Shown here piece after piece: positions 22,395 to 34,611 of a stretch of 64,000 bases of DNA. Position 1 is the first letter of the stretch. Every line of letters starts with the position of its first letter. The notes under the pieces are model-generated. The model did no database searches. It was not told the origin of the DNA and saw only the letters and a program-made list of their open reading frames with translations. The position numbers and the translations under genes were made by a program. The stretch comes from an uncultured archaeon (GTDB lineage Archaea; Asgardarchaeota; Lokiarchaeia; Sigyniarchaeales; SOKP01): NCBI GenBank assembly GCA_964486045.1, contig CAZALK010000001.1, positions 424,242 to 488,241 on the forward strand. Direction: 5' to 3'.

Positions 22395-22837
22395 TAACAT
22401 CCTGACTTCTATCATTATGAGAATCCTTCCTATTTTTAAAATAGGATGGAAGAAGATAACACAGAGAAAGTGTCTAATCATTTCAATTTGAAATTGAAAT
22501 GAATTATTTATATGAGGATCCAATATTAGTTCAAATAAGATTGGATCTTTAACACAGAGAAAGTGTCTATACATAAAAGGCAAGTAAAAAAATTGCTTAA
22601 AAAAAAATTTAAAGCAATTTCAAATTAAATATAATTTAATTTCCACTCAAAACATTCACTCTATCTATATATTTAATACTATACCCTAAGAAAATGTAGC
22701 AGATGTGGTTGTTTATAATAAATAATTAATTAAATAAAAACAAATTAGGTTTAGGTAAAACCGTGTTTATAGTTTCTATAAACAAGGGTTCTTTGATTAC
22801 AATACTTCTTATATCTCCTCTTCCCATCTGGCAAATT
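22395..22837 (+). repeat. Modular non-coding block, copy 1 (modules A-B-B-C-D-E)
   Basis: Modules recur in inverted orientation at 26258..26648 and partly at 34158..34252. Confidence 0.8.
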
Positions 22838-23100
22838 GATCAGTAAAAATATGTTAGTTTACTGTTATTATTAATATATTTATTTTACTTGCGATTTGCT
22901 TGATTTTCTCGGAGTCTGAAGACGGGAAAATTTCCCTTCCAATTCTTTTTTTATGAGAATACTCTCTTTTCTCATGAGATTTGTGGGCATATTCTCTTTT
23001 TTAAGGGATAATCCCTTTTTTTAAACCTCTTCATACAATAAATCCCTTTATTTTAAGGGAATATCCCTTTTTCCTGCTAATTGGCTGAAACAAAATTAAT

Positions 23101-23208
23101 ATGGAAGGGGTTAGTTGGAAGGATATAGCATTAGGGTGGATACATAAACCTAAACCTAAACTTAAATCAAAACCAAAACCAAAATCAAAACCAAAAATCG
23201 AACAATAA
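23101..23208 (+). CDS. Small basic KP-repeat peptide (35 aa)
   Basis: Manual translation MEGVSWKDIALGWIHKPKPKLKSKPKPKSKPKIEQ*. Confidence 0.35.
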   Translation: MEGVSWKDIALGWIHKPKPKLKSKPKPKSKPKIEQ

Positions 23209-23304
23209 TAATGTTTCTTTTTTTATAAAAAAAAAAACATTATTATTGATATTTTTTTAAAAATTTAAAAAATATAAAAATAAATAAAAAAAAGGTAATA
23301 AAAT

Positions 23305-23499
23305 ATGGAAAATAAAAATATTAAGATAGAAATGATTTCAATAGATGCTATAACTATTGATACAACCCAAGCAAGAAGGGGGGCATGGGAAGATGATGAA
23401 AAAGATAAAACATTAATAAATTCAATTAAAGGAATTGGATTAATTTATGATATTATTGTTAGACCTACCGATAGTGAGAAATATAATGGAAATTTTTAG
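23305..23499 (+). pseudogene. Truncated ParB/Srx N-terminal fragment
   Basis: ISIDAI..QAR...LINSIKGIGLIYDIIVRP; stops before the GxRR motif. Confidence 0.65.
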
Positions 23500-23549
23500 A
23501 AAAATTGATAATTAACTAAAATATAAAATAAACAAAAGGAGATAAAAAA

Positions 23550-24851
23550 ATGATAGAAAATATTCCTTTAGATAAATTAGTTGAAAATGATTATAACCCT
23601 AGAAAACATTTTGATGATGCTGCTATACTTAGATTATCAGAAAGTATTAATGAAATCGGTTTAGTGCAAGCATTAACTGTTAGAAAGATAGATGGAGAAA
23701 AATACGAAATTATTTGTGGTATGAGGCGATTCAAAGCAATAAATTTAATTCTTTTGGATTCTATTCCATGTTTAATAGTTGAAGCAACAGATCAACAAGC
23801 GAAATTACTTGCTTTAACTGAAAATCTCGAGAGGCAGAATTTAAACCCGATTGAAGAAGCCAGAGCATTTGTTAATATTTTAGATTGGAATCTTTTAAAT
23901 TTGAAAGATACAAAATATCAAAAAGGTATGGAAAAAAAAATAAAAGAATTAGGAAAAAATATAGGAATGAGTTCTGTAACTATTTATAATAGACTTAATT
24001 TGTTATATCTTCCAAAAGAAGTACAAGTTATGGTAGAAAATTATAATAGAGAAGCAAGAACAGGAATATCACAAAGTGCAGCATTAGAAATTACTAAATT
24101 AAAAGAAATTTCTAATGAAAAACAGCGATTCACGCATATGATTGATTTAGCAAAAACTTTTGATGGTGATATCAATAATCTTAAAGCACGAATAAAAAAT
24201 ATTTTAGAAAATATTAAAAAAACAGAAGATGTAAAAGAAAAAAAACTAGAACAATTAAGAGAATTATACGAACAAGCTATAAATGAATTAATAATAGTTT
24301 TCAATGAATCTATTGAAAAATTATTCCCTGAAGATATTGGAGAATACGAAAGTAATACAGAAATTGAAACTGCTTTAGCAAATAGCTATTTAGAATTAAC
24401 CAAATCTAAAGAAATAACTATGAAAGAAGATATTGAAAAAGATGAGGATGAAGAAAATATCAAATTTGCAATTAGTTTTTATGAGATGATTCATGATTTT
24501 TTAGAAAAATTTAAAAAAGACACACAATGGGAAAAATTACGAGAAAAACAAATTTCAATAGAAGATAAAATGGATAGATTATCGATTCATCTTCAATATG
24601 TAAAAGAGTCCCCGACTGATATTTGTGTTTATTGTGGAGCGGGTATAAATATTAATAAAATGGTAAAACAATTAAAAGAATATAAAGAAAAATTGATAGA
24701 AATAAATAATCACAAAAAGATTATAGATAAAGAAAAAAATAAAATTTCGACATGTGCAAGAAATTTAAAGAAAAAAATTGAATTTTATATTTCTAAAAAG
24801 GAATTTTACGAAGATTTAAAAAAACAAATGGAGGATGAGATTAGTATATGA
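23550..24851 (+). CDS. parB: ParB/Spo0J family protein with C-terminal coiled coil and CxxC
   Basis: NPRK, GLVQALTVR, CGMRRFKA, ENLERQNLNPIEEA, HTH; ICVYCG between heptad-rich helices. Confidence 0.9.
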   Translation: MIENIPLDKLVENDYNPRKHFDDAAILRLSESINEIGLVQALTVRKIDGEKYEIICGMRRFKAINLILLDSIPCLIVEATDQQAKLLALTENLERQNLNPIEEARAFVNILDWNLLNLKDTKYQKGMEKKIKELGKNIGMSSVTIYNRLNLLYLPKEVQVMVENYNREARTGISQSAALEITKLKEISNEKQRFTHMIDLAKTFDGDINNLKARIKNILENIKKTEDVKEKKLEQLRELYEQAINELIIVFNESIEKLFPEDIGEYESNTEIETALANSYLELTKSKEITMKEDIEKDEDEENIKFAISFYEMIHDFLEKFKKDTQWEKLREKQISIEDKMDRLSIHLQYVKESPTDICVYCGAGININKMVKQLKEYKEKLIEINNHKKIIDKEKNKISTCARNLKKKIEFYISKKEFYEDLKKQMEDEISI

Positions 24852-32753: not shown

Positions 32754-32820
32754 TTTTTATATCACCTTATATATTTTATTAGGTTACTGATCATGATCGA
32801 AATAACTTCCTTTATAAATA

Positions 32821-32881
32821 TATTTGGATTTATTAGGTTAACAAAAAATTGTATTTGGATTTATTAGGTTAACAAAAAATT
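32821..32881 (+). repeat. Perfect 30-bp direct repeat x2 (31-bp period)
   Basis: TATTTGGATTTATTAGGTTAACAAAAAATT at 32821 and 32852. Confidence 0.9.
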
Positions 32882-33039
32882 ATATTAGGAGTTATTATGT
32901 AAGAAGGATTAGGAGTAGGATTATATATCCAATAATTATTTATTTTAAGTTGGAAAAATATAACAATTTATGTTTTTTTCTTTGAAAGATACTCCTAAAT
33001 TTTTTTTTAGGATAAACTCCTTACAATAAGAAAAATAAA

Positions 33040-33708
33040 TTAGATTTTAATTCCACATCTAGAACAGAATATTTTTGTTTTATCTATTTCAGCTCCACAT
33101 TCTCGACAATAGATAATTTTTGAAACTTTTCTCTCCTGAAAAACTGTTACTTCTTTTGGAGTCTTTCTTTTATGCCTTCTAATAAGAAGTATAGGAATAG
33201 CTATGACAAGAACTATAACAACTATAGAAATTATAGGAGTTAACATATTCCAAAATATGTTTTCATAAGGATTATAACGTCGTTCCCAATAATCAACAGA
33301 TAAATCAATATATACAGTTCTTCCAAAAAGCAAAGCTTCATTTTCCAAAACAACATAGTAATAATCTCCACTTCCAGTTACATCGAATGTCCAACCTTTT
33401 AAAGATATAATATTTTCCCACATCTTTTCAGAATAAAAATAACCATATTCTTGAAGTTCATCAAATTGCCATTGTTTCATAATATAAACATCAATTCCTC
33501 CATCAGAATCAATATCATTAATTAAGATTGTATCTCCATTTTCTAAATATCCCATATAATACGACGTATAAGATGATGATGGAATATTGATTGTACCTCC
33601 GTAATCTACGGCAAAAGCACTCTGAATATTAGAGAACCCTGTTATAGCAAATAAGAATATTATTCCAAATAATATCTTTTTATTTTTCATTTTTTTCTCT
33701 TTTTTCAT
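33040..33708 (-). CDS. Membrane-anchored protein with C-terminal zinc ribbon
   Basis: Signal peptide, beta-rich ectodomain, one TM helix, CRECG..CSRCG. Confidence 0.8.
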   Translation of the reverse strand: MKKEKKMKNKKILFGIIFLFAITGFSNIQSAFAVDYGGTINIPSSSYTSYYMGYLENGDTILINDIDSDGGIDVYIMKQWQFDELQEYGYFYSEKMWENIISLKGWTFDVTGSGDYYYVVLENEALLFGRTVYIDLSVDYWERRYNPYENIFWNMLTPIISIVVIVLVIAIPILLIRRHKRKTPKEVTVFQERKVSKIIYCRECGAEIDKTKIFCSRCGIKI

Positions 33709-33920
33709 TTAAATTTATTTTTCATTTATAATATAAATTATATTATATTTAAACATTAACTAAATAAATGCTTACATAAGAACTTTTAGATTTAGTTAAG
33801 TGAATACATAACTAAGTTTACGGAAATGTAAAAGTGTCATAGGTAAAGCTATAGAAAATAATAATAAAATTAAAAAATATTTAGAATTTATTACATTAAT
33901 AGAAACTTAATTTCTTAAAT

Positions 33921-34079
33921 ATGCAAAATAAAATTGATAGCGTGGAGAAAATTAGAGAAATCGGTAATTCTTTGTATATTAATGTTCGAAAAGATATAGC
34001 GACTTTATTAGATTTAAGTAAAGGTGATTATGTAAAAATTTCTATCGAGAAAATTATAAAATCAAAAAAGAAAAAATAA
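33921..34079 (+). CDS. AbrB/MazE-type DNA-binding protein
   Basis: Manual translation MQNKIDSVEKIREIGNSLYINVRKDIATLLDLSKGDYVKISIEK... Confidence 0.75.
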   Translation: MQNKIDSVEKIREIGNSLYINVRKDIATLLDLSKGDYVKISIEKIIKSKKKK

Positions 34080-34611
34080 ATTTAATCTTAAAGTAGAGTA
34101 TTTAAAGGAGAGGGTTGGAGGTAGGAAATATGGGTCACCCATATTTTTTTGGAAAGTACGACACAAGTTTTTTTTGTGTCGTTCTTGTTTTCGTGTAAAA
34201 TGCGTTTTATATTTTTTATAAAACGTACTTACAACACAGAGAAAGTGTCTAATATAAATCTTTTGATGTGTGTTTCAAAATATTACTAATTTTACTAGTA
34301 AAATTTCCAATAATTTCCAAAGTTTTTTGGAGGTTAAAAGAAGATAATCTTCCCATTTTCTTTTATGATGAATTTTATCAAAGAAGTGTTAAATACAACT
34401 ATCTAAAATATTGTTTTAGCTCTTTTAAAATATAAATTACACTTAACTATTAAGAGTATATATATTGTTTGAAACATCATAAAAAAATACTGAATTATTC
34501 AGTATTTTTCAAGGAATTTTCTTGTTTTTAATATCCATTTGGCAAATGGATGAAAAAATTGGTTTTCTTGATCCAAAAAAAATTTAGATTTTTTAAGTTA
34601 TATATTTTTAT

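Follow-up and report, generated by a model that had tools for sequence, protein, structure and literature searches.

Repeated palindromic blocks as candidate DNA control regions in an undescribed provirus-like element of a Lokiarchaeon

The window analysed here is a 64,000-nucleotide (nt) stretch from the genome of an uncultured Lokiarchaeon (positions 424,242 to 488,241 of contig CAZALK010000001.1). It holds a 27.3-kb integrase-bearing element (20696 to 48032, in window numbering) that is inserted between pyrD and nop56, has a low GC content, and carries an 11-bp direct repeat at both ends. In the metagenomic contig L130, which comes from a close relative, the right end is joined to the left end through this 11-bp core to form an attP junction; the L130 integrase is 87% identical to that of the element, and the ends are 90 to 92% identical in DNA. 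The element is an undescribed Asgard provirus-like (virus-like) element. Within it lie three noncoding blocks built from repeated modules, A to F, and from two families of palindromes, G and H. The modules were found where the original prediction had placed them, and its statement that the two main blocks bracket the parB cassette in inverted orientation also holds. The features of the blocks are as follows.

22378 to 22418, plus strand: box A, copy 1 (core 22395 to 22415)
26625 to 26665, minus strand: box A, copy 2 (core 26648 to 26628)
22458 to 22476, plus strand: box B, copy 1, a 7-nt asymmetric core with 4-bp inverted flanks
22551 to 22569, plus strand: box B, copy 2
34233 to 34251, plus strand: box B, copy 3
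26517 to 26530, minus strand: partial box B, core and right flank only (14-nt 3' part)
22693 to 22817, plus strand: C+D unit, copy 1 (TATA-like C, hairpin D, 38-nt invariant tail)
26258 to 26382, minus strand: C+D unit, copy 2
22821 to 22861, plus strand: box E, then a decayed C, upstream of the parB genes
26383 to 26399, minus strand: box E, copy 2, directly before C
26735 to 26810, plus strand: F, copy 1 (hairpin, T-rich linker, hairpin; terminator-like)
34158 to 34230, plus strand: F, copy 2
22478 to 22502, no strand: perfect palindrome of family H (other H copies at 22341, 22615 and 26828)
26409 to 26492, no strand: two tandem copies of the 42-bp palindrome family G (23 nt identical in L130)
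26580 to 26621, no strand: third G palindrome, with a swapped centre
34276 to 34317, no strand: fourth G palindrome
25856 to 26114, no strand: consecutive perfect palindromes, among them three 25-bp tandem units AAAC-N13-GTTT (25937 to 26007)

Taken together, C and D form a single 125-nt inverted repeat (22693-22817 versus 26382-26258) that is 89% identical and identical throughout its final 38 nt. The two A copies, with their flanks, agree over 41 nt at 85%; the E-C units (22821-22861 versus 26399-26360) are 83% identical, and the F copies are 85% identical over 47 nt. At the third copy of B, the 3' flank and G resemble their counterparts at the partial B of block 2 (73 nt, 77%). The pattern originally written for C has zero matches and requires three variable bases. 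The longest words common between blocks are 38, 21 and 17 nt, compared with shuffle maxima of 15 to 16, and no exact module copy occurs in the 5.18-Mb host genome outside the element. The spacers between modules had been described as unrelated palindromes, but not all of them are, since families G and H have four copies each in the element (the G core occurs 4 times versus 0.05 expected, and H 4 times versus 0.08).

The palindromes themselves are unusually dense. Perfect stems of at least 9 bp number 4, 11 and 6 per block, compared with shuffle means of 0.06 to 0.34, and among all 1.2-kb windows of the 5.18-Mb genome the three blocks rank first to third in palindrome density (11, 5 and 5; the next best has 2). 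Loops of 0 to 1 nt are found in 15 of the 21 perfect stems in the blocks versus 43 of 141 in host DNA (p=5e-4). Most stem mismatches are A-A, T-T or A-G, and those capable of wobble pairing are split 10 versus 5 between the strands (p=0.30), giving no G-U strand bias. Block 2 folds alike on both strands (z of -8.9 and -10.3). In the three AAAC-N13-GTTT units, symmetry is perfect throughout while the palindromic interiors are wholly different. These data indicate that the blocks are a real feature, beyond chance, with selected-looking repeats, and the stem statistics favour DNA palindromes over RNA structure.

In module orientation, A, B, C and D are collinear in both main blocks, with spacings of 137 and 148 nt from the last B to C and of 414 and 382 nt from A to the end of D. 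Only E is displaced: at 22821 it is followed by the decayed C, so that E-C is one unit whose second, worn copy points at the parB genes. Block 3, located after the Topo mini-A gene, is partial and reads F-B-G. The original prediction was thus right that the repeats are real and that the position of E differs, but its "shuffled modules" of differing order are overstated because the main blocks are collinear. The blocks are two diverged inverted copies of a ~400-bp region plus one partial copy, with F attached in either orientation. Relative to B, F is oriented oppositely in blocks 2 and 3, which is not predicted by a single RNA architecture.

The sequence bracketed by the main blocks, together with remnants of a parB-like gene, bears on how the palindromes arose.

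23550 to 24851, plus strand: ParB-like CTPase-domain protein with a helix-turn-helix (HTH) and a coiled coil
24848 to 25543, plus strand: 231-amino-acid (aa) partner gene, coupled to parB in two other Lokiarchaeia
23305 to 23499, plus strand: N-terminal fragment of a parB-like gene, 53% to P0126 residues 9 to 63
26102 to 26266, plus strand: remnant R, the middle of a parB-like gene, 64% to P0126 residues 217 to 266, cut off where D begins
20887 to 20998, plus strand: backbone segment of the left end, which sister elements conserve and which recurs at 25703-25815
25703 to 25815, plus strand: 70% copy of the left-end segment of the element

The reference for both fragments, P0126, is a 338-aa ParB-like protein. 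Remnant R also occurs in L129 (688-867 and 975-1115, twice, inverted), in L130 (1029-1172) and in L131 (4337-4579), and a similar palindrome run lies ahead of the second R copy of L129. At 26093, a 22-bp perfect palindrome replaces sequence that is nonpalindromic both in L129 and in an intact parB (L128). L130 has a new 12-bp stem, the left arm of which is common with the window while the right arm has been rewritten as its complement. As judged from these comparisons, new perfect palindromes have formed in place from former parB coding sequence in this element family. Template switching is known to create perfect hairpin pairing in one step (10.1101/2023.04.19.537475) and may be the mechanism here. 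As in the hairpins described in that work, a single event would yield both perfect pairing and multibase symmetric changes (in D, in G and in the two in-place palindromes); those hairpins are genome-wide in primates, whereas these are concentrated in 2 kb of one archaeal element. The change in D, originally read as two compensatory pair swaps, is indeed symmetric in both arms but comes down to a single adjacent AT>GC dinucleotide per arm, and an uncorrected mismatch, different in the two copies, remains in each. Self-correction of palindromes, which the original prediction had itself named as an account of the covariation that would tell against its interpretation, gives covariation of just this kind and is exemplified by the two in-place cases in relatives.

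The cargo slot is pieced together from a duplicated left end and fragments of parB. The second left-end copy suggests that the left parts of two relatives are combined in this element, which would account for the presence of two control regions. Sister elements in G008 and G099 have the left-end backbone in common with the element, and the slots occupied here by the blocks are filled with other cargo in the sisters.

Several observations concern the same stretch of cargo. Several related elements retain the R piece, ~50 codons long, often in the form of a small open reading frame; the piece's substitution pattern against L130 is codon-type (5/1/9, p=0.04), although R was found via a protein search and is subject to ascertainment bias, and it may encode a mini-protein or act as a cis site within parB. 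A 46-codon coiled-coil-like open frame without a standard start (25568-25708, minus strand) lies downstream of the second left-end copy. The gene pair for ParB and the 231-aa protein (23550-25543 here) recurs at L030:8706-10699 and L028:16245-18342 without the modules, and in G067 it lies near a tRNA-like gene and a degraded integrase. The 231-aa protein has no Atlas match, and its predicted structure is poor (pLDDT 37). Repeats of AAGGGA-N3-TCCCTT precede parB (22924-23069) and were not seen, by eye, upstream of the 70% identical G103 parB. The first cargo slot holds a DUF3800 gene (21254-22045); in G008, the same backbone segments flank a different gene (L041:2331-3308) that looks TIR-like by eye, and we read the slot as a swappable defence slot.

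Outside the blocks and the parB cassette, the element carries the following.

20696 to 20706, plus strand: attL core (11-bp direct repeat), with the same core at 48022 and in the L130 attP junction
48022 to 48032, plus strand: attR core (11-bp direct repeat)
46655 to 47953, minus strand: tyrosine integrase, the element's own
27497 to 29782, minus strand: DUF927-type primase/helicase-like gene
27164 to 27215, plus strand: five AAACTATA direct repeats adjoining the helicase gene, candidate iterons of a replication origin
34854 to 35966, minus strand: Topo mini-A gene

The region around the AAACTATA repeats is conserved in G008, and the five repeats may serve as replication-origin iterons. Further genes encode several small DNA-binding proteins, including ribbon-helix-helix (RHH) and HTH types, and a membrane-protein block. 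A 300-aa protein (36448-37350, minus strand) is 63% identical in L123 and has the look of a sliding clamp by eye; neither Pfam nor PHROG gave a match to it. Members of the family insert between pyrD and nop56 (20696-20706 and 48022-48032 here; L041; L130:635-705), the G008 element in the opposite orientation, and the att region is AT-rich and partly palindromic. The host genome has 11 copies of CGTGAAA-N6-TTTCACG with a variable 6-bp centre (e.g., C1:397464, C2:296668 and C4:32642), none of them in the window; they may be a host operator or Xer-like site family.

Among described systems, the wyrdviruses (10.1101/2021.07.29.453957), spindle-shaped-type Asgard viruses, likewise have a Lokiarchaeal host. 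As in the element, a small protein with two membrane segments, a large anchored adhesin-like protein, a P-loop ATPase and Topo mini-A occur together; homologues of the adhesin, ATPase and Topo mini-A also co-occur in L131. Unlike wyrdviruses, the element has an integrase and a DUF927-type helicase, not pPolB or an HUH endonuclease. When the element was compared with the wyrdvirus set of a His1-like capsid protein, an adhesin and a pI-like ATPase, sizes and layout fit, and no profile match was obtained for the capsid protein or the ATPase. The wyrdvirus paper speaks of palindromes only once, and this gave no passage on arrays of the present kind (10.1101/2021.07.29.453957).

We then looked for the modules beyond the element. 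A to F were not found in 161 genomes of the class, in sister elements, or beside the parB homologues in G103, G067 and G063, and exact-match scans of viral, metagenome and genome collections gave no match. Absence from related elements, an outcome that the original prediction had said would speak against it, is therefore what was seen as far as the search went. In the corresponding slot of L130, a contig of only 1374 bp whose element may hold copies elsewhere, the left end leads directly to the remnant and G, E-C-D and the parB cassette both being absent. G is present there in one copy, 23 nt identical, just after the parB remnant; copies of H also occur in L041 and L129. From this distribution, G and H are predicted to behave like operators of the element family. 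G-like matches among the class genomes were coding or isolated. Scans of helicase, ParB and integrase loci yielded no useful match, and viral loci with Topo mini-A were distant and without arrays. No such arrays occur in sisters that share the helicase and origin (G008, L123) or Topo mini-A (L076, L123-L127) with the element. To date, the arrangement is known from a single element.

The explanation that we favour, with a probability of about 0.45, is that the blocks are a duplicated and rearranged cis-acting DNA control region, comprising operators, a possible parS and a promoter, that is kept symmetric by template switching. Protein-binding DNA sites are most likely, rather than a new RNA family, which is less exotic than what had been proposed. 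The boxes and the multicopy palindromes G and H would be bound, as double-stranded sites, by dimeric proteins that the element itself encodes (RHH, HTH or ParB); G would be a parS candidate, E-C an operator with a promoter, and F a terminator-like stop. Template switching during replication would rewrite one arm from the other and so produce symmetric double changes without selection at the RNA level. Duplication and reordering, in a slot that would recombine frequently, would have come about via recombination between related elements, not through a dedicated shuffling enzyme.

Arrays of operators or centromere sites, such as parS, NBS and multi-operator switches, are familiar from temperate phages and plasmids. 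The blocks resemble them in having several 15- to 20-bp palindromic cores near parB and small DNA-binding genes; they differ in that the element has many further palindromes without a common sequence and no ParA. G supplies a 16-bp palindrome in several copies near parB, as expected of parS, and it follows the parB remnant in L130. The layout of its 16-bp core, nnTTT-N6-AAAnn, is what we take to be that of parS and NBS, a likeness used here as a lead and not as a test.

Several points count against this explanation. G was not seen near the parB homologues of G103, G067 and G063, the G103 contig ending 130 nt after the cassette. Constraint on A to E rests on two to four copies in one element and none in the relatives searched. 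As protein-binding sites, the boxes, G and H are putative, and a promoter scan matrix built from 12 tRNA genes was too weak to inform. Template switching accounts for the symmetry but not for a palindrome density 80 to 200 times the host rate; such a density would call for hairpins to be selected or for a high local rate of formation. Finally, it leaves unexplained why three tandem units keep their symmetry with unrelated interiors.

The last two points are where a different view, unlikely but the best of the alternatives, gains ground: the palindromes may be structure-dependent DNA signals that are under selection to form hairpins or cruciforms when the DNA is single-stranded or supercoiled. 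Such signals might act in replication start or stop, second-strand priming or genome extrusion, possibly being read by Topo mini-A or the packaging-type ATPase; Topo mini-A has been proposed as a possible rolling-circle initiator (10.1101/2021.07.29.453957). The three tandem 25-bp units fit this view, as a dimer reading sequence would not need symmetry with different interiors, and so do the position of block 2 beside the candidate origin, that of block 3 after Topo mini-A, and the L129 palindrome run before its second R copy. In a more specific and likewise doubtful form, the array would be read by its shape and not its sequence: short hairpins, framed by fixed boxes, would be free to vary in their interiors, which template switching would regenerate, and the array would serve a viral nicking, packaging or RNA-processing step as yet undescribed in archaea. 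The strongest hint of this comes from the three 25-bp units with unrelated palindromic interiors. However, the arrays are absent from the sisters that have this helicase and origin or this Topo mini-A and are therefore not essential to those functions, and the AAAC-N13-GTTT tandem pattern was not found in 300 Asgard genomes, its viral matches not being palindromic.

Next in rank, and also unlikely, are structured small RNAs, with C as the promoter, D as an ~80-nt RNA (a hairpin and an invariant 3' tail) present in two copies, and F and the other hairpins as RNA elements of longer noncoding transcripts. A TATA-like TTTATA does lie ~30 nt before D, the 3' 38 nt of which are identical in both copies. 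The loops of D and F, at 3 to 7 nt, are RNA compatible, and both F copies score as terminator-like, with fold z of -3 to -6; the fair candidates for RNA are D and F alone. On its module strand, though, D folds with z of only -1.4 and -1.7, not clearly better than shuffles, and its covariation amounts to the one dinucleotide. No Rfam family matched the modules at the gathering threshold or at a useful E-value, and D, besides being undetected in the class genomes and in viral and metagenome scans, is missing from the same slot in the closest relative. With the tiny loops, the equal fold stability on either strand and the lack of G-U strand bias in the blocks, the structured noncoding RNA family of the original prediction is not borne out.

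It is improbable that box B is an asymmetric crossover site, like the sfx sites of the R64 shufflon, at which the integrase or a host Xer recombinase inverts gene-less units or the parB cassette. As at sfx (PMC11852207), B has a 7-nt asymmetric core, a conserved right side, a variable left side and copies in both orientations, with the partial copy keeping the core and right flank; several junctions fall at or near AGAGA, and in L129 the second R copy terminates in the left half of B. Unlike the shufflon, the element has no dedicated invertase, no alternative gene ends, a single observed arrangement and only 7 conserved bases right of the core, where shufflon sites have a 12-bp conserved arm. 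B is also unlike the element's att core, the element has no second recombinase, and the main blocks are collinear. An exact crossover at B in L130 was rejected, the junction being 2 nt out of register with B and the spacer 10 to 12 of 28 identical. A dif-type XerA site at the end of D was likewise set aside, with arms symmetric at 4 of 11 positions (11-6-11 expected); the only host dif candidate, C4:70871, is within a gene and not conserved.

Least probable of all is that the blocks are mostly neutral debris of a hot spot of rearrangement, with palindromes of little function accumulating there through duplication and template switching: the parB fragments, the duplicated left end and the loss of most modules in close relatives would suit it, but boxes of 14 to 38 nt are 95 to 100% identical while the DNA between them is unalignable, and G is kept in L130.

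Other candidates were rejected outright. A CRISPR or TIGR array is not present in the window; the host repeat is unrelated, and none of 29 element proteins has a Cas or Nop-domain Pfam match. An IS200/IS605 element or a miniature inverted-repeat transposable element was dismissed, with no transposase gene in the element and no copies elsewhere in the genome. For a guide or spacer function, the longest host matches outside the element were 12 to 15 nt, as expected by chance, and none of note appeared in 880 kb of related loci. The likeness of E to an integrase motif in L071 (15/17) is within chance. A 26- to 27-residue hydrophobic peptide from D, with a GTG or TTG start, has a tail that enters unrelated flanks, and one of these flanks is present without D in L130.

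The cis-acting signals of Asgard viruses are essentially unknown, and the element supplies candidate sites for them: an att core, iterons, G, H and boxes A, B and E. It also offers a natural series, of a rare kind, that shows old coding sequence turning into perfect palindromes, and with it a caution that symmetric double changes in palindromes are able to mimic RNA covariation. If it is true that the hairpins are read by shape, they would represent a new kind of viral signal.

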